A stretch of 64,000 nucleotides of DNA from Candidatus Methylomirabilota bacterium (GCA_035627835.1 DASPKX010000104.1:14832-78831); one strand, 5' to 3'; positions 55,022-63,243 are shown, numbered from the stretch's first letter. The notes: generated from the sequence alone by a model not told the origin. Translations and numbers: made by a program.

Positions 55022-56074
55022 ATGCACCGCCGTTCCTTCATCCAGCGCACGTGCACGGCTGCGCTGCTCGGCCCCATGGCTTTAGCTGCCGCGCAAAACC
55101 GCCGCGTGCGCATTGGCTTCCTTGGCGCTGTCCATTCGCATGCTGCCGCGAAGATCCAGATCGCCCGCGATTCCGCAGATTGGGAATTGATCGGCGTGGC
55201 CGATTCCACCACCGCCGGTGAAGCCACTGCCAAACGCCTCAACGTCAAAGTCCTTCCTCCGGACGAGATCCTGGCAAAAGCCGAGGTGATCGCCATCGAG
55301 TCCGCCGTGCGCGACCAGGCGAAGCTCGCCTTACTTGCGCTCAAAGCCGGCAAACACATCCACCTCGAAAAACCAGGCGCTGCCGCCTTGCCCGAGTTCA
55401 CCCAACTCGTGAACGAAGCCCGCGAACGCCGCCTCCTCCTGCAAACCGGCTACATGTGGCGGCACAATCCCGGTTTTCATAAAATCTTCGAAGCCGTCCG
55501 CGAAGGTTGGCTCGGTGACGTCGTCATGGTCCGCGCGCACATGAGCAACAACCTCGCTCCATCCTCCCGCGCCGAATGGGCCGAGTTCAAAGGCGGCTCC
55601 ATGTTCGAGCAAGGCTCGCACATGATCGATGCCATCGTGCGTCTCCTCGGCAAACCACGTCAGATCACCTCCACCCTGCGCACCCACGGCTCCTCCACCG
55701 ACACCTTGAAAGACAACAATATTGCCATCCTGGAATATCCCAAAGCCACCGCCGTCCTTACCAACAGCTCCCTCCAACGCACCGCCGCCCCGCAACGCAG
55801 TTTCGAAGTCATCGGCAGTGAAGGCTGGGCCAAACTTGAGCCGATCGAGCAACCGCGTTTGCAAATCGAACTCCGCCAAGCCGCGGGTCCATACGCCAAA
55901 GGCGCCCAGGAGGTTCCCCTCTCCCGCTTCGAGCGCTATGTCGGTGACTTCGTGGAACTCGCCGCCGCCGTCCGAGGCGAGCGCCAACTCTCAGTTTTGC
56001 TTGATGATGAATTGCTCGTCGCCGAAGCCACCCTCCGCGCCAGCAACATGCATTGGACCCAAGCCCCCTGTTAG
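55022..56074 (+). CDS. Gfo/Idh/MocA-family oxidoreductase with a Tat-like leader
   Basis: MHRRSFIQRTCTAALLGPMALAAA, IGFLGAVHSHA Rossmann-like motif, HLEKPGA. Confidence 0.86.
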   Translation: MHRRSFIQRTCTAALLGPMALAAAQNRRVRIGFLGAVHSHAAAKIQIARDSADWELIGVADSTTAGEATAKRLNVKVLPPDEILAKAEVIAIESAVRDQAKLALLALKAGKHIHLEKPGAAALPEFTQLVNEARERRLLLQTGYMWRHNPGFHKIFEAVREGWLGDVVMVRAHMSNNLAPSSRAEWAEFKGGSMFEQGSHMIDAIVRLLGKPRQITSTLRTHGSSTDTLKDNNIAILEYPKATAVLTNSSLQRTAAPQRSFEVIGSEGWAKLEPIEQPRLQIELRQAAGPYAKGAQEVPLSRFERYVGDFVELAAAVRGERQLSVLLDDELLVAEATLRASNMHWTQAPC

Positions 56075-56210
56075 TATTGCGCGTCTAAAGACCATCCACA
56101 CACTGGGTGCCCAGAGGCTCTCTACCCTACTTGAACCTGCGTTTCTGCTGCGCGCTGCGTAAACGCGCCTCTAGCCTTGACCATGCGCGCCGCAAGCTCA
56201 CACTCGCGGC

Positions 56211-57533
56211 ATGAACCAGCACCTTTCCGAAGTCATTAACCTCCTGGAGCCTGAATCGACATCGCTCCTGGGCGCCTCACGCGAAGAAGCCGAGGCCCTG
56301 CTCTGGAGTGATGACGCAGAGGCTCTGGGGAAGCTGCACGGCTCATTCTGTTTGCTCGCCCAACATGGCAAAACAGTGCGCATGGCGCGCTCATTGGATC
56401 GGCCAATGCGCTATTTCCTCGCGAAGAAAGCCGCTGGTCCCGCCCTGATTGTGGCTAACCGGATCGACGTCATCCGGGATTTTCTAAGGGCTTATGGAAT
56501 GGATGGGCAGTTTCATCCGACCTACACCCGCATGGTTCCAGCGCATTATCGCGTGGAAATTCAGCTCGTCGGATGCCCCGATCCCGATCCGGTTTACACC
56601 CGCTTTTTCACTCCTGAGCTCGGCACACTTACGCCCGACTTGGATTTGATTGGCAAAAAATATATCGGCGCGGTCGCAGAGGAGATCGAGCGCTGGCTGC
56701 TGCCCCTGCGAGACAAAGCCGATCCAATAGGAGTCTCCTTTTCCGGCGGGGTGGACAGCGGGGCGATATTTGTTCTGACATATTGGACGATGCAGAGGCT
56801 CGGCATGAACCTCGGCCGCCTGAAGGCGTTCACGCTGCAGCTCGGCAACGGTCCAGACCTCCAGCAAGCCCGCGCCTTCCTCGATGCGATGGGCCTCGGC
56901 TTGTTCCTTGAACCAATCACCTCACCGCACGTCCGCTTTGATTTGGCCCAGGTCTTGAAAACCGTCGAGGACTACAAACCCCTTGACATTCAATCCGCCG
57001 CCATGGCCATGCATCTCCTGAATGGCATCCGCGAGCGCTATCCCGATTGGAAGCTTTTGCTGGATGGCGAAGGCGGCGACGAAAACCTGAAAGATTATCC
57101 GATTGAAGAAAATCCCGAACTTACGATTCGCAGCGTCGTGCACAATCGCATGCTGTACCAGGAAGGATGGGGCGTCGGCAAAATCAAGCACTCATTGACG
57201 TACTCTGGTGGTTTGAGCAGGAGTTATGCGCGCTCGTACGGCCCGGCCCGGCGCTTTGGCTTTGAAACGTTCAGCCCCTTTACCCGCCCTTCAGTCATTC
57301 GTGTGGCTGAAGCCATTCCATTTATCGAACTGACGAAGTACGATGTGCCGAGGCTTTATTCGCTTAAAGGCGAAGTAACAGGCCGCGGCGTCAAAGCTCT
57401 TACTGGTCTTGAAATGCCAGTCTTTGAAAAGCGCCGCTTCCAACATGGCGCCATGAGCCGCGACGCCTTGCTCGGCCAGTTCCCGGATGCGGAAAATCAG
57501 TATCGCCGCACCTACCACAGCTTCTATGCCTGA
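56211..57533 (+). CDS. Asparagine-synthetase-B-like PP-loop adenylating enzyme lacking the N-terminal glutaminase Cys
   Basis: PP-loop VSFSGGVDSGAIFV (SGGxDS). The degenerate Ntn-like N-terminal domain (GSFCLLAQHGKTVRMARSLDRPMRYF) begins MNQHL, with no Cys2. Confidence 0.82.
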   Translation: MNQHLSEVINLLEPESTSLLGASREEAEALLWSDDAEALGKLHGSFCLLAQHGKTVRMARSLDRPMRYFLAKKAAGPALIVANRIDVIRDFLRAYGMDGQFHPTYTRMVPAHYRVEIQLVGCPDPDPVYTRFFTPELGTLTPDLDLIGKKYIGAVAEEIERWLLPLRDKADPIGVSFSGGVDSGAIFVLTYWTMQRLGMNLGRLKAFTLQLGNGPDLQQARAFLDAMGLGLFLEPITSPHVRFDLAQVLKTVEDYKPLDIQSAAMAMHLLNGIRERYPDWKLLLDGEGGDENLKDYPIEENPELTIRSVVHNRMLYQEGWGVGKIKHSLTYSGGLSRSYARSYGPARRFGFETFSPFTRPSVIRVAEAIPFIELTKYDVPRLYSLKGEVTGRGVKALTGLEMPVFEKRRFQHGAMSRDALLGQFPDAENQYRRTYHSFYA

Positions 57534-58494
57534 AGCCGGGTTGGCCTACCCCGCCGAGGCTGCGGCCCAGTCCTCGTGGGTTCTTGCACGCCGCGGCGCG
57601 CGCAGGAGAGTTTCCCCTGATCAGCCTCACGGTGTTTTTGTCGAGCTTGAGCGCGACTCAACCGGAAAATTAACCGAGACGCTCACCGTCCTCCTCACCA
57701 ACAAGGAGTGCCCGTTTCGCTGTGTGATGTGCGACCTTTGGGAGAACACTCTTCAAGAGCGCGTTCCCGTTGGCTCGATATCCGCGCAGATGGAGGTGGC
57801 CTTGCAGGCGCGGGGAAATGCAACCGTCATCAAACTTTATAACAGCGGCAGCTTCTTCGATCCGCAGGCTATTCCTCACGAGGAATATCCTTCCATCAGC
57901 GCGCGCCTTCGTGGCTTTTCCCACGTGATTGTCGAGTCGCACCCCGCTTTCATCGGCGCGCGAACACTCGAATTTGCGCGCTCCCTGACAGGCGCGCTGG
58001 AGGTCGCCATCGGCCTCGAGACAGCGCACCCGGTGGCGTTGGAAAAACTGAACAAACGATTTAGCCTGGAGCAGTTTACCGCCAGCGCGGCTTTCCTGCG
58101 GGCGCATAACATTGCTCTGCGCGTGTTCCTGTTGCTTAACGCCCCTTTCATCCCCGCTTCGGAGACTCAGGCCTGGACCTTGCGTTCGATTGATTTTGCC
58201 CTAGAGCAAGGCGCCTCCGCGGTGGTGGTCATCCCCACCCGGTTCAATCGCAGTTTGGAGGATCTCGAGAAGCTTGGGCTCACGACGCGTTCGCGGTTGC
58301 AACATCTCGAGGATGCGCTTGCCTATGGGATTGCGCAGAGGCGCGGGCGCGTTTTTGCAGATCTGTGGGACCTCAATTCACCTGCCGGCTGCGCTCGTTG
58401 CTTTCCTGCACGCAAAGAGCGATTGCGGCTCATGAACAATCTGCAAACCGTGGCGCCAAAGATTCACTGCACTGAGTGTGAAGCGCCGTTGTGA
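57526..58494 (+). CDS. Radical SAM enzyme (small; looks to me like TIGR01210/RaSEA-type)
   Basis: CPFRCVMC = CX3CX2C. Also NSGSFFD and a TIM-like continuation. ATG 57526 overlaps the upstream stop by 8 nt (ATGCCTGA). Confidence 0.82.
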   Translation: MPEAGLAYPAEAAAQSSWVLARRGARRRVSPDQPHGVFVELERDSTGKLTETLTVLLTNKECPFRCVMCDLWENTLQERVPVGSISAQMEVALQARGNATVIKLYNSGSFFDPQAIPHEEYPSISARLRGFSHVIVESHPAFIGARTLEFARSLTGALEVAIGLETAHPVALEKLNKRFSLEQFTASAAFLRAHNIALRVFLLLNAPFIPASETQAWTLRSIDFALEQGASAVVVIPTRFNRSLEDLEKLGLTTRSRLQHLEDALAYGIAQRRGRVFADLWDLNSPAGCARCFPARKERLRLMNNLQTVAPKIHCTECEAPL

Positions 58495-59914
58495 TCTCCT
58501 AATTATCGGCGCGGGCTTCGCGGGCTCCCTCCTGGCATTGGTCGCTGCCCGCCTCGGCCTGCAGGTCATCGTTGTGGACAAAGCCAGGCATCCGCGCTTT
58601 GTCATCGGCGAGTCCACCACCCCGCTAACCAATCTCCTCCTCGAGCAGCTTGCCCACGAGCAAGATCTTCCGGAGTTGCTCGGCTTTACTGAATGGGGCC
58701 GGTGGCAGCAGACGTATAACCAAATTCCAGTCGGCCTCAAACGCGGGTTTACCTTTCTCCATCATCGTGCAGGGCAATATTGTGACGCCTCGCGGGAAGC
58801 CCAATTGCTTGTCGCAGCGAGCCCAAACAACACCCTCGCTGACACCCACTGGTTCCGAGCTGCTTTTGATCAGAAACTCATGGAACTCGCCCGCGCACGG
58901 GGGGCAACATTCTTCACCGGGGCGACGGTTCTTGCGTTCAAGCCTGAGCAAGTCCAAATCAGCATCGAGGCTGAGGATGAGCAACTCGAACTGGAAGCGC
59001 CATTCCTGGTCGATGCCAGTGGTGCGCGCGGCTTTTTATTTCAGCGGCTTGAGCTTCAGGAGGCAGACATTCCCCACATGCCCAGTCATAGCGCCCTTTT
59101 CACGCATTTCACAAACGTGCCGCCGCTCTCTGCCGGCTTGTTTGAGCACGGCGCTCCTTACCCGCCCGAGGATGCCGCCGTGCATCATCTGTTTGAAGGT
59201 GGTTGGGTATGGTCGCTCTGTTTCAACAATGGCCTCGTCAGCGCTGGCATCTCCGCCGAGGAATCATTTGCGCGCGAGCTTCGGCTCCATGAAGGCCATG
59301 CCGGATGGAACCGTTTGCTCGCCCGCTTTCCAACACTCGCGCAACAGTTACAGGGAGCAACACCGGTCCAGCCCTTTCATTTCCAGCCAAAACTCTCGTT
59401 TCGCTCGCAGGTTATGATTGGACCCCGCTGGGCGATGCTTCCATCAGCGGCCGGCTTCCTTAACCCGCTCCTGTCCACAGGGTTCCCGCTAACACTTCTG
59501 GGAATCCGCCGCATGGTGACACTCCTCCAAGCTCTCCCGGAAGTTCCGCCACAAAGTTTAAAGCAATATGCCGAGGACTGCGCGCATGATTTCAACGCCG
59601 CAGGCCTGCTCACCAGTGCAATGCTGAGGCGCGCCGACGACTTTGACGCCTTCGCTCAACTCTCACTTCTTTACTTCGCTTCAAGCATCTGGGCCGAAAC
59701 GCAAGTCCGGGCCGGGGGCCTCGAGTGGCTGTATCGGTTCCCCCTTGGCCGCGCGCCGTTCTGGCCTGGAGCACAATCAATTTGCCAGGCCTCTCTCGCT
59801 CGCAAACTCTCCGCAAAAGAGTTGCAAGCACAGGTCCAGGCATTGATTGAGCCCTATGACATAGCGCAACTCACCCGACCAGAGAAACGCAATTGGCACC
59901 CCTTCCCTTCATGA
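58478..59914 (+). CDS. FAD-dependent oxidoreductase of the halogenase / geranylgeranyl-reductase-like flavoprotein class
   Basis: DLLIIGAGFAGSLLA (GxGxxG), GESTTP, FEGGWVWSLCF (WxW-like motif). GTG 58478 overlaps the radical SAM gene by 17 nt. Confidence 0.82.
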   Translation: MKRRCDLLIIGAGFAGSLLALVAARLGLQVIVVDKARHPRFVIGESTTPLTNLLLEQLAHEQDLPELLGFTEWGRWQQTYNQIPVGLKRGFTFLHHRAGQYCDASREAQLLVAASPNNTLADTHWFRAAFDQKLMELARARGATFFTGATVLAFKPEQVQISIEAEDEQLELEAPFLVDASGARGFLFQRLELQEADIPHMPSHSALFTHFTNVPPLSAGLFEHGAPYPPEDAAVHHLFEGGWVWSLCFNNGLVSAGISAEESFARELRLHEGHAGWNRLLARFPTLAQQLQGATPVQPFHFQPKLSFRSQVMIGPRWAMLPSAAGFLNPLLSTGFPLTLLGIRRMVTLLQALPEVPPQSLKQYAEDCAHDFNAAGLLTSAMLRRADDFDAFAQLSLLYFASSIWAETQVRAGGLEWLYRFPLGRAPFWPGAQSICQASLARKLSAKELQAQVQALIEPYDIAQLTRPEKRNWHPFPS

Positions 59915-59921
59915 ACCGCAG

Positions 59922-60047
59922 ATGAACCCGATATACGCGCCACCTCCCCCCTTCGCCAAATCCGACACCCGCATGCCCGACTACGACGGCTCCCTAACCC
60001 CACCTCAAATCGACTCCATCATCTTGTTTCTTAAAAACTGGAAGTAA
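59922..60047 (+). pseudogene. 41-codon ORF resembling only the C-terminal end of a c-type cytochrome (probable gene remnant)
   Basis: MNPIYAPPPPFAKSDTRMPDYDGSLTPPQIDSIILFLKNWK matches the usual cytochrome c C-terminus pattern (MP.a.G.LT..qI..iI.aL...). There is no CxxCH upstream. Confidence 0.3.
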
Positions 60048-60563: not shown

Positions 60564-60638
<75 letters not shown>

Positions 60639-62168: not shown

Positions 62169-62250
62169 CTTAAAAAGATCGAACGATTTCAGCTCAGCTG
62201 CAAACCCTACACCAGAACCATCCGCTTGTTCCCGTTATGCTTCTTCAATT

Positions 62251-62351
62251 CCCCTCTGTTACCTCCGTTAGCTCCGCGCGCTCTGTGTTAAATCCTTCAG
62301 CTTCCTTCTTCCACCTCTGCCCCTCGGCGTCTCTGCGGGAAATTTTTCTTC
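62251..62351. repeat. Composite interspersed repeat (B+A unit), copy 1
   Basis: B: CCCCTCTGTTACCTCCGTTAGCTCCGCGCGCTCTGTGTTAAATCC. A: CTCTGCCCCTCGGCGTCTCTGCGGGAAATTTTTCTTC. The same B+A arrangement recurs at 63067..63158. This copy overlaps the 3' end of the 62297..62965 gene. Confidence 0.9.
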
Positions 62352-62965
62352 CGAAGACGCCACCATCCGCCCAGCAGCCCGGCACCGAACACCGCCAAAG
62401 CTGCAGGCGAAGGCTCCGGCACCGCAAAGATTGTCTGCCCAACGTTCAATGCTCCCGGCGTCGCGAAGGACAGAGCCGCCCACGAAAAATCCTCCCCGCT
62501 CTCCCCTGCTCCCACCAACCCCAGAGCAGCGGCACCGGCCAAAGGTTCAGCCAACCCAATGTCACTGGAAGTCAACCCGAGCGCTGGCCCTCCTGTGGCC
62601 GTTATCGACCCTTCGTACGAAAGGAAACTCACCAACGCTCCGCCAAAGTCCAGCGATAACCCATCCGGCGCGCCATTCTGAATGCCCGGGATCAGTTTGG
62701 AGTAAAGCCGGTAGGCTCCGCCCTGCTCCCCTGCCGTAAATGTGCTGAGCCGGTGACTTTCATAAACACCGCCGCCGTTCCCATTGTACAGACTCAGCCG
62801 CAACGCGCTCAGGTCAGTGATTGATTCATGCACCGCCACTTCCACGAACTCATTCACGTCAGCCCCATCGTTGTCGTAATGAAGCTCATTGATCCACGCG
62901 ACAGGCTGCTGCCCCTGTGCTTGGAAAGCCAATAAAACCCCAGCTAAAGCCGTTAGCCACCTCAT
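62297..62965 (-). CDS. Lamin-tail-domain (LTD) protein with a PEP-CTERM sorting signal
   Basis: Signal peptide MRWLTALAGVLLAFQAQG. LTD-like INELHYDNDGADVNEFVEVA. C-terminus VPEPSPAALAVFGAGLLGGWWRLRKK (PEP motif, TM helix and basic cluster), followed by a 15-aa tail encoded by the repeat element. Confidence 0.8.
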   Translation of the reverse strand: MRWLTALAGVLLAFQAQGQQPVAWINELHYDNDGADVNEFVEVAVHESITDLSALRLSLYNGNGGGVYESHRLSTFTAGEQGGAYRLYSKLIPGIQNGAPDGLSLDFGGALVSFLSYEGSITATGGPALGLTSSDIGLAEPLAGAAALGLVGAGESGEDFSWAALSFATPGALNVGQTIFAVPEPSPAALAVFGAGLLGGWWRLRKKNFPQRRRGAEVEEGS

Positions 62966-63043: not shown

Positions 63044-63067
63044 AGGCCCGGTCCCCCGACCGGGCGT
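63044..63067. repeat. 24-nt hairpin repeat AGGCCCGGTCCCCCGACCGGGCGT (copy 2 of 2)
   Basis: Identical to 47116..47139. It directly abuts copy 2 of the composite B+A repeat. Confidence 0.9.
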
Positions 63068-63158
63068 CCTCCTCTGTTACCTCCGTTATCTCCGTTCCCT
63101 CTGTGTTAAAATCCTTTCTTCCTCTGCCCCTCCGCATCTCCGCGGGAAATTCTTCTTT
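63067..63158. repeat. Composite interspersed repeat (B+A unit), copy 2
   Basis: TCCTCCTCTGTTACCTCCGTTATCTCCGTTCCCTCTGTGTTAAAATCC...CTCTGCCCCTCCGCATCTCCGCGGGAAATTCTTCTTT, in the same orientation as copy 1. Confidence 0.9.
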
Positions 63159-63191: not shown

Positions 63192-63243
63192 TTCCCCTCT
63201 GTTACCTCCGTTTCCTCTGCGCCCTCTGTGTCAAAATTTTCCT
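63192..63243. repeat. Third (B-only) copy of the interspersed repeat
   Basis: TTCCCCTCTGTTACCTCCGTTTCCTCTGCGCCCTCTGTGTCAAAATTTTCC. Confidence 0.85.

Follow-up and report, generated by a model that had tools for sequence, protein, structure and literature searches.

A widespread three-gene operon for a Cys-less AsnB-like enzyme, a radical SAM enzyme and a halogenase-type flavoprotein that may modify a small molecule

Results

Organization of the locus

The present study deals with three genes, named here g1, g2 and g3, which lie at positions 56,211 to 59,914 of a stretch of 64,000 nucleotides (nt) from a Candidatus Methylomirabilota bacterium (GCA_035627835.1 DASPKX010000104.1:14832-78831). 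This whole stretch is referred to as the window. An earlier reading, made by a model from the sequence alone (the sequence-only reading), had described the three genes as an orphan cassette and had taken their overlaps as a sign of one functional unit. Direct reading of the junctions gave an overlap of 8 nt between g1 and g2, ATGCCTGA at 57526-57533, when g2 is taken to start at 57526, and an overlap of 17 nt between g2 and g3, as the GTG of g3 at 58478 precedes the g2 stop codon TGA at 58492-58494. The start of g2 at 57526 was chosen by the gene callers in two metagenome assemblies with identical proteins, and it agrees with the length of the g2 homologues, 318-331 amino acids (aa). GC content is even over the three-gene region. 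Each gene has thousands of homologues, with an identity to the window proteins of about 65% for g1, 50% for g2 and 45% for g3. The three are real genes and form one translationally coupled operon. Coordinates are given in Table 1.

Table 1. Features of the operon and of its surroundings in the window
Feature	Position	Strand	Remarks
GFO/IDH/MocA oxidoreductase gene	55022-56074		immediate 5' neighbour
Upstream intergenic region	56075-56210	+	136 nt; presumed promoter/5' untranslated region of the operon
g1	56211-57533	+	440 aa; ATG start; open reading frame (ORF) call
g2	57526-58494	+	322 aa; alternative ATG at 57487 gives 335 aa
g3	58478-59914	+	478 aa; GTG start
Small ORF MNPIYAPPPPFAKSDTRMPDYDGSLTPPQIDSIILFLKNWK	59922-60047	+	41 aa; starts 8 nt past the g3 stop
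Cluster of 20-nt motif GGTCAGCTCTTAACATTTAA	60071-60245		three direct copies and one inverted copy
tRNA-Lys(CUU) gene, anticodon CTT	60564-60638	-	3' neighbour, about 650 nt from the operon
Repeat of about 45-100 nt, core CCTCTGTTACCTCCGTT	62249-62350, 63067-63157, 63192-63235		flanks the PEP-CTERM gene
PEP-CTERM protein gene	62297-62965	-	downstream of the operon

Conservation of the cassette

A g1 profile was scanned against one genome per GTDB species. This returned at least 594 stretches with a g1 relative, and the best 80 were examined. It was found that g1-g2-g3 occur in the same order and orientation in 56 of these best 80 loci, and a few others carry g1-g2 without g3. A scan of metagenome contigs centred on g2 provided another 80 loci, among which all three genes are present in 59, g1 and g2 without g3 in five, and g2 without an upstream g1 in seven. 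The sequence-only reading had proposed co-conservation as the test of the unit, and both sets answer it in favour of a unit. Over all loci examined, at least 122 carry the trio, with the genes overlapping or nearly abutting, in the phyla Acidobacteriota, Verrucomicrobiota and Abditibacteriota. The labels include Acidobacteriaceae, Bryobacteraceae, Solibacteraceae, Holophagales and Blastocatellia, and further Limisphaerales, Chthoniobacteraceae, Opitutaceae (Lacunisphaera) and Abditibacteriota. Among cultured bacteria, carriers include Silvibacterium acidisoli, Acidobacteriaceae bacterium KBS 96 and Acidobacterium sp. S8. When trio loci sharing any flanking gene cluster were removed, at least 28 distinct contexts without shared neighbours could be counted. 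No Pfam family occurs more than twice among the 90 nearest flanking proteins of 28 such contexts.

Loci with g1 and g2 and without g3 comprise L001, L005 and L012 besides the five metagenome loci. Downstream of a divergent g1 (P0245, 402 bits), too, there is a g2-like protein with a CX3CX2C site; it has RCPYGCVFC, KLYNGSSFFE and C-terminal cysteines. Because the pair persists in this divergent branch, g1 and g2 are the core of the cassette and g3 is a frequent accessory. In some lineages g3 is dispensable, and in some Verrucomicrobiota g1 is solitary. A divergent g2 at the loci with g1 only was considered and rejected, since the downstream ORFs of 293-363 aa in L064, L074 and L075 lack CX3CX2C and have no match to the g2 hidden Markov model (HMM). 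The other neighbours at such loci are unrelated (NTP transferase, HARE-HTH, ADH, PIG-L).

Several variant loci were observed. One distant g1 relative adjoins an unannotated 782-aa protein beside a sigma-54 activator. On an archaeal contig (L173, GCA_053536395.1, 7193-9389) another distant g1, P0264 (294 bits), lies 4 nt 3' of the gene for a Haem_oxygenase_2-like protein of 267 aa (a weak match), with neither a radical SAM (S-adenosylmethionine) enzyme nor a halogenase at this locus; the g1 ligase family may here use the Haem_oxygenase_2-like protein as another oxidative partner. On a metagenome contig (L087, 2189-8590), g2 and g3 occur without g1 and are preceded on the same strand by genes for a Rieske ring-hydroxylating oxygenase, a flavin amine oxidase and a pyridoxal-phosphate-dependent (PALP) enzyme. 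This may be a variant pathway with other enzymes in place of g1.

g1 encodes a Cys-less AsnB-like PP-loop enzyme

The g1 protein carries the PP-loop SGGVDSG at aa 178-184 (nt 56742-56762). A second motif, DGEGGDEN, lies at aa 285-292 and contains an intact GxGGDE. It passes the cut-off of Pfam PF00733 Asn_synthase (43.6 bits, cut-off 21) and fails those of TIGR01536 (45.3 bits, cut-off 267) and PRK09431 (27.2 bits, cut-off 499), and all 16 aligned family members likewise fall below these cut-offs for true asparagine synthetases. The N-terminus reads MNQHLSEV and thus lacks Cys2; a longer in-frame ORF does not exist. As none of the 16 homologues has an N-terminal Cys, the nucleophile of the N-terminal nucleophile (Ntn) glutaminase is missing across the family.

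By sequence, g1 aligns to solved AsnB/ASNS structures only at aa 165-296, the PP-loop half; its C-terminal half, where the comparison was aimed at the Tyr-Glu dyad and Lys of beta-lactam synthetase (BLS) and CarA, stays unaligned by sequence to solved structures. The AlphaFold2 (AF2) model is of moderate quality, with a predicted local distance difference test (pLDDT) value of 70; its segment at aa 290-336 is poorly modelled although invariant in sequence. Foldseek matched it to CarA (1q15), BLS (1mc1), human ASNS (9b6c), E. coli AsnB (1ct9) and TsnB9 (7ylz) with E values of 1e-9 to 1e-7, and template modelling (TM) scores were 0.40-0.49 against 1q15, 1mc1, 1mbz and 1jgt. These matches extend over 420-480 columns and cover both domains, which backs a two-domain AsnB architecture. 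Judged from motifs and model, g1 is an enzyme of the AsnB/beta-lactam-synthetase fold with a truncated, degenerate Ntn-type N-domain, and it is predicted to be unable to hydrolyse glutamine. The sequence-only reading, which had called g1 AsnB-like from SGGVDSG and a MNQHL start without Cys2, agrees with these motifs and with the CarA and BLS folds.

With BLS, CarA, TsnB9, the lasso cyclases, TsrC and PesC, g1 shares the two-domain AsnB fold in which the PP-loop is intact and the glutaminase domain is dead. Cys-less homologues of this kind (BLS, CarA, lasso cyclases, TsrC, PesC) form amide or lactam bonds from an acyl-adenylate (PMC13060819). From the BLS/CarA group, g1 would be expected to form an acyl-adenylate in an ATP-dependent manner, followed by attack of a nitrogen that does not come from glutamine. 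However, g1 is shorter than the Cys-less homologues (440 aa against about 500-580), it forms a tight clade of its own unlike BLS, CarA, TsnB9 and the peptide-acting asparagine-synthetase-like (AS-like) enzymes, and it has a RaSEA-like radical SAM partner, which BLS, CarA, TsnB9, lasso cyclases, TsrC and PesC do not have.

The conservation of g1 is high. Proteins labelled Acidobacteriota and Verrucomicrobiota are 63-67% identical to the window protein, and mean column identity among sixteen homologues from several phyla is 81%. A search of the g1 profile against 1.84 billion representatives clustered at 50% identity gave 993 matches at E<=1e-3, mostly fragments of one cluster with a few divergent full-length branches, so that the core family lies almost wholly inside one 50%-identity cluster. 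As far as sequences tell, this is a level typical of core enzymes. An apparent g1 fusion of 1111 aa in L035 was rejected as an overlapping ORF in the IlvD frame.

g2 encodes a radical SAM enzyme

The g2 protein has the CX3CX2C site CPFRCVMC at aa 62-69 (nt 57709-57732), and near its C-terminus CARC at 289-292 and CTEC at 315-318. Over 18 homologues no exception occurs at C62, C66, C69, C289, C292 or C315, and conservation of C318 is at least 90%; this cysteine pattern recurs in the wider family. With Pfam PF04055 the score is 17 bits against a cut-off of 29.5, and PF04055 is nonetheless recorded for many homologues. The AF2 model reaches a pLDDT of 92.7, and its best folds in the PDB are the radical SAM domain of Elp3 and then PFL-AE, LipA and MiaB. 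Motif and model together identify g2 as a radical SAM enzyme with a predicted partial TIM-barrel fold, in line with the sequence-only reading of a small CX3CX2C radical SAM protein of about 320 aa.

RaSEA (TIGR01210) is the sole significant curated family for the window protein, with 93.8 bits against a cut-off of 212 and a match to profile positions 8-212 of 313, that is, the barrel only. RaSEA was matched by 18 of 18 family members (best E 3.4e-35), and MnmL/YtqA (TIGR01212), second across the family, by 14 of 18 (best 5e-6). These scores below cut-off and the fold matches place g2 beside RaSEA/YtqA, as a sister family in the Elp3-like group of radical SAM enzymes and not as a RaSEA orthologue.

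g3 encodes a halogenase-type flavoprotein

The g3 protein passes the cut-off of PF04820 Trp_halogenase (55.4 bits, cut-off 21). Its matches in the PDB are PltM (6bza/6bzt, 1.3e-39) and CtcP (7xgb, 4.5e-39), aligned from residue 4 to about 398, followed by weaker ones to CmlS, PltA, ChlB4, RadH, Bmp2 and CndH. The flavin adenine dinucleotide (FAD) motif GxGxxG is present as GAGFAG at aa 11-16. The sequence-only reading had advised a check for the two hallmarks of true halogenases, the catalytic Lys and WxWxIP. The Lys is there: K88 in VGLKRGF (GLKRGF, aa 86-91, nt 58733-58750) aligns with K87 in CGIKLGF of PltM and, over 48 homologues, is conserved to at least 95%. Of WxWxIP only the first half is kept, as GGWVWSLCF at aa 241-249 corresponds to GWLWVIPF of PltM and has LC in place of IP. 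K87 of PltM is essential for activity, its position being confirmed by the K87A primer (PMC6424973), and it corresponds to K98 of CtcP (PMC12400496). Both enzymes halogenate free phenolics beside this conserved Lys (PMC6424973, PMC12400496).

A segment that lines the pocket, ASP.D.iaDTHWyR, is kept throughout the g3 family, which suggests a single substrate. Like PltM and CtcP, g3 has GxGxxG, the catalytic Lys and WxW, and no flavin reductase is encoded alongside, as is usual for such enzymes. It differs from them in the change of IP to L-x, in about 80 C-terminal aa that do not align with their helical region, and in the lack of their polyketide or pyoluteorin context. Below their NCBIfam cut-offs, g3 also matches QhpG (90.9 bits, 8e-26, cut-off 240), LodB (46.7 bits, 2e-12, cut-off 400) and GoxB (39.1 bits, 5e-10, cut-off 400), and no qhp, lodA or goxA genes lie near it. 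The sequence-only reading had left the choice between a halogenase-like and a geranylgeranyl-reductase-like enzyme; the former stands, while the latter was rejected because the match to the geranylgeranyl-reductase family TIGR02032 is below cut-off (61.9 bits, cut-off 158.8) and covers only the Rossmann part at aa 6-196. Going by its residues, g3 is a homologue of PltM/CtcP-type flavin halogenases of the phenol/pyrrole type with the catalytic Lys kept, and either halogenation or hydroxylation would be possible.

Surroundings of the operon in the window

In the window the operon is flanked by the oxidoreductase and tRNA-Lys genes of Table 1. Genes for a metalloenzyme/sulfatase-family protein, LexA, a Rieske protein, glucose/sorbosone dehydrogenase and FtsH lie farther upstream, and PSCyt1 is also among the window neighbours; judged by the PEP-CTERM and PSCyt1 genes, the window would seem PVC/Verrucomicrobiota-like. 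Nothing in these genes points to a pathway. The 136-nt region 5' of g1 has no sigma-70 consensus and is too short for a precursor-peptide gene; promoter and terminator scans did no better than on shuffled controls. A riboswitch or leader RNA was sought 5' of g1 in the window and in seven diverse loci, with zero Rfam matches.

The 41-aa ORF behind g3 is a gene call in two metagenome assemblies and is not kept beside the trio at other loci. Visual inspection shows a likeness to the end of a c-type cytochrome domain on its C-terminal side, and the ORF may be a gene remnant. The 20-nt motif between g3 and the tRNA gene is confined to its cluster within the 64 kb (0 copies expected by chance) and could be a protein-binding site or a small repeat element. 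The tRNA-Lys is the sole tRNA in the window. The repeat around the PEP-CTERM gene has a core with four matches in the window against 0 expected.

Neighbouring genes at other loci

In Acidobacteriota and a few Verrucomicrobiota loci the trio adjoins lipoprotein-type FG-GAP/UnbV_ASPIC (CRTAC1-like) genes, and the same neighbourhood contains a giant TPR-FG-GAP-ASPIC protein gene and one for an RnfD/NqrB-like membrane protein of 270-290 aa. An ASPIC gene lies within the locus at 64, and an RnfD-like gene at 54, of the 85 trio loci whose flanks are long enough. The orientation of ASPIC gene and trio is convergent in Acidobacteriaceae and divergent in Lacunisphaera. In a Bryobacteraceae metagenome-assembled genome (L022, 1111-11208) six co-directional, overlapping genes follow each other in the order TPR-ASPIC, ASPIC, RnfD-like, g1, g2, g3, and the module is also found beside the trio at L082, L083, L168 and most Acidobacteriaceae loci. 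A functional link of this module to the trio is suggestive. The name orphan fits the window, and not the cassette in general, which is widespread and has these recurrent neighbours in Acidobacteriota.

At an Abditibacteriota locus (L166, AP024152.1, 6120-13082) genes for a UbiD-family decarboxylase, the trio and a major facilitator superfamily (MFS) transporter stand in a row on one strand. No other context encountered points to an aromatic acid as substrate and to export.

As the sequence-only reading had stated, no transporter, regulator, carrier protein or precursor peptide is adjacent to the operon in the window. Across loci, the cassette has no conserved companion gene for a scaffold synthase, a carrier protein, a precursor peptide or an exporter. 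All ORFs of 18-90 aa within 1.2 kb of 117 trios were clustered, and a precursor peptide was rejected, since the recurring ORFs are shadow ORFs and C-terminal extensions of g3, none of them including the window. No partner with an RRE (RiPP recognition element, RiPP being a peptide made by the ribosome and modified after translation), with SPASM or of leader-peptidase type was detected in Pfam/NCBIfam scans or among the 90 flanking proteins. Beta-lactam (clavam/carbapenem) pathway genes are absent from the window and the trio flanks, and no neighbour resembling tRNA-guanine transglycosylase (TGT) or ArcS was seen at trio loci. A defence system was rejected, as g1, g2 and g3 gave zero PADLOC matches.

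Discussion

The present analysis shows that g1, g2 and g3 travel together as one unit. As far as profiles can tell, each belongs to a known superfamily and falls below the curated cut-offs of every characterised family compared. It is a combination of known kinds of tailoring enzymes and not a categorically new system. The expectation of the sequence-only reading that no characterised pathway would contain this trio was borne out: the combination is in no NCBIfam, Pfam or PADLOC description, and no paper on it was found in full-text literature searches. The ammosamide and nitrilobacillin pathways were rejected as an explanation, having only enzyme classes in common with the cassette.

Possible modification of a small molecule

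The reading that we prefer, tentatively, is that the cassette could modify a small molecule by amide formation, a radical step and halogenation or hydroxylation. In this scheme g1 would adenylate the carboxylate of a metabolite that is common in cells, most likely a small aromatic acid derived from an amino acid, and would join it to a nucleophile that glutamine does not supply, such as free ammonia, an intramolecular amine or the amine of an amino acid. A tightly coupled radical step by g2 would act on this adduct or on its precursor. With FADH2, O2 and a flavin reductase of the host, g3 would halogenate an electron-rich ring of the same molecule, or hydroxylate it if the degraded WxWxIP matters. 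As genes for scaffold synthase, carrier protein, precursor and exporter are all lacking as conserved neighbours, the substrate is probably present in every host. A modified metabolite or cofactor-like compound is more likely as the product than a classical secreted antibiotic. The closest folds to g1, which are small-molecule amide and lactam formers, speak for this scheme, as do the nearest solved structures to g3, those of PltM and CtcP, both with free phenolics as substrates. Further points in its favour are the nearest curated families of g2, RaSEA and MnmL/YtqA, which handle amino-acid adducts on a side chain that bears nitrogen, and the row of UbiD, trio and MFS transporter in Abditibacteriota.

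A number of observations weigh against it. The nearest characterised relatives of g2 all act on tRNA bases. The linkage to ASPIC genes in Acidobacteriota, including the six-gene cluster of L022, hints at a protein substrate. The conservation of g1 fits a macromolecular or universally conserved substrate equally well as a secondary metabolite, or better, and about 19 of the best 80 genome loci have g1 alone, labelled Verrucomicrobiota except for one Abditibacteriaceae. Throughout the g3 family WxW is conserved, I is replaced by L and P is variable. In addition, QhpG, LodB and GoxB are halogenase-fold hydroxylases of peptidyl Trp, and the halogenase fold is no guarantee of halogenation (PMC7876137).

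Possible maturation of a protein or peptide

It is doubtful, but worth serious consideration, that the trio matures a protein or peptide, with g2 and g3 modifying Trp, Tyr or another residue and g1 adding an amide or isopeptide link. The exported FG-GAP/ASPIC proteins encoded beside the trio in Acidobacteriota would be candidate substrates, and the frequency of ASPIC and RnfD-like genes at trio loci favours this view together with the matches of g3 to QhpG, LodB and GoxB. There is also a precedent, as the radical SAM enzyme QhpD and the flavoprotein QhpG, which has a halogenase fold, both act on one polypeptide, QhpC, before export (PMC7876137). AS-like enzymes can act on peptides, for instance the lasso cyclases and the enzymes forming C-terminal amides or nitriles (PMC13060819).

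The resemblance is nevertheless incomplete. QhpD and QhpG, which mature the gamma subunit of QHNDH, are encoded in one operon as are g2 and g3; but QhpD is of the SPASM type and g2 is not, and no QhpC-like peptide, protease or exporter accompanies the trio. Lasso cyclases and AS-like enzymes of RiPP pathways have an adjacent precursor with a leader peptidase or RRE, which g1 loci lack: the small-ORF search over 117 loci gave no conserved small ORF, and clavam, carbapenem and RiPP genes are missing in the trio flanks. In sequence g3 is nearer to PltM/CtcP (139.7 bits) than to QhpG. In all 64 kb of the window there is no ASPIC or RnfD-like gene. At loci from outside Acidobacteriota the ASPIC link stays close to chance level, with 5 of about 27 loci, and within Acidobacteriaceae it may be inherited synteny. 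FG-GAP/ASPIC genes are abundant in these phyla. No literature was found on the function of these neighbour genes.

Possible modification of tRNA or rRNA nucleosides

We consider it rather unlikely that the substrate is a tRNA or rRNA nucleoside. Here g1 would adenylate a carboxylated or carbonyl side chain of a base, g2 would process the amino-acid adduct, and oxidation or halogenation of the base would fall to g3. PP-loop enzymes often act on tRNA (TilS, MnmA, TtcA). The curated relatives of g2, RaSEA and MnmL/YtqA, are all tRNA enzymes, Elp3 and MiaB are among its top folds, and g1 is very strongly conserved between phyla. It could also be noted that the operon is autonomous in housekeeping-type contexts and requires no transporter or regulator. 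However, Pfam/NCBIfam scans found no PUA, THUMP or TRAM domain in g1, g2 or g3, no TGT or ArcS partner is nearby, and the trio is distributed patchily over taxa. Median isoelectric points of 5.8-6.1 mark the families as acidic, which is weak evidence. To our knowledge, AsnB-type PP-loop enzymes and flavoproteins of the flavin-dependent halogenase type have no RNA substrates. MnmL/YtqA, which converts cmnm5s2U to (m)nm5s2U in Gram-positive bacteria, belongs to the same Elp3-like fold group as g2; the similarity is weak, and g2 has neither an MnmM partner nor a tRNA context.

A possible nitrogen relay between g1 and g2

A more specific proposal, which we regard as distinctly improbable as it stands, is that g1 and g2 carry out a glutamine-independent amidation by relay of amino-acid nitrogen, the carboxylate counterpart of ArcS-RaSEA, before halogenation by g3. 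RaSEA is said, in the work of Yokogawa et al. of 2019, to cleave the C-N bond of lysine radically, with the nitrogen left behind. It is the best curated match of g2, and g2 is likewise paired with an enzyme that would install a nitrogen-bearing group. In the archaeosine pathway RaSEA converts preQ0-Lys, the lysine adduct made by ArcS, into archaeosine (PMC11298593), and MnmL has been proposed to process a glycine adduct, cmnm5s2U (bioRxiv 10.1101/2023.12.21.572861). Such a relay is conceivable for g1-g2 because g1, the partner of a RaSEA-like enzyme, lacks a glutaminase of its own. In this case g1 would adenylate a carboxylate and ligate an amino acid such as lysine or glycine through its amine, g2 would cleave the C-N bond of that amino acid radically so that the nitrogen stays as a primary amide or a further-processed group, and g3 would halogenate the product afterwards. 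The differences from ArcS-RaSEA are considerable. The RaSEA score of g2 is less than half of the cut-off and comes from the barrel only; RaSEA has an ArcS/TGT-like partner, whereas that of g2 is an AsnB-like, ATP-dependent ligase with a halogenase attached; and the hosts of g2 are bacterial, without ArcTGT or a preQ0 context. If true, the relay would explain the loss of the glutaminase in g1, its obligate and translational coupling to this radical SAM clade and the persistence of the pair without g3.

That g1 is a plain asparagine synthetase paralogue, g2 a radical SAM enzyme of no special kind and g3 an unrelated monooxygenase, adjacent without a joint function, is very improbable and is largely refuted by the co-conservation data, for although some Verrucomicrobiota loci have g1 without g2 or g3 and seven of the 80 metagenome loci have g2 without g1, the order is identical and the genes overlap or nearly abut at 122 or more loci in no fewer than 28 unrelated contexts, g1 scores 45 bits against the 267-bit AsnB cut-off with its glutaminase nucleophile gone, and the g1-g2 pair is kept in a divergent branch.

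Significance

In the abundant, poorly cultured soil phyla Acidobacteriota, Verrucomicrobiota and Abditibacteriota, the cassette ranks among the more widespread of the enzyme trios that are still uncharacterised. Identification of its product would assign a function to thousands of proteins that are now annotated as 'asparagine synthase-related', 'radical SAM' and 'tryptophan 7-halogenase'. It could uncover a new halogenated or hydroxylated metabolite, a cofactor or a macromolecular modification that is frequent in soils, and it could reveal a new glutamine-free way of amide synthesis by an AsnB-like ligase and a RaSEA-type radical SAM enzyme. The trio is also relevant to biological halogen cycling in soil, the genes of which are mostly unknown.

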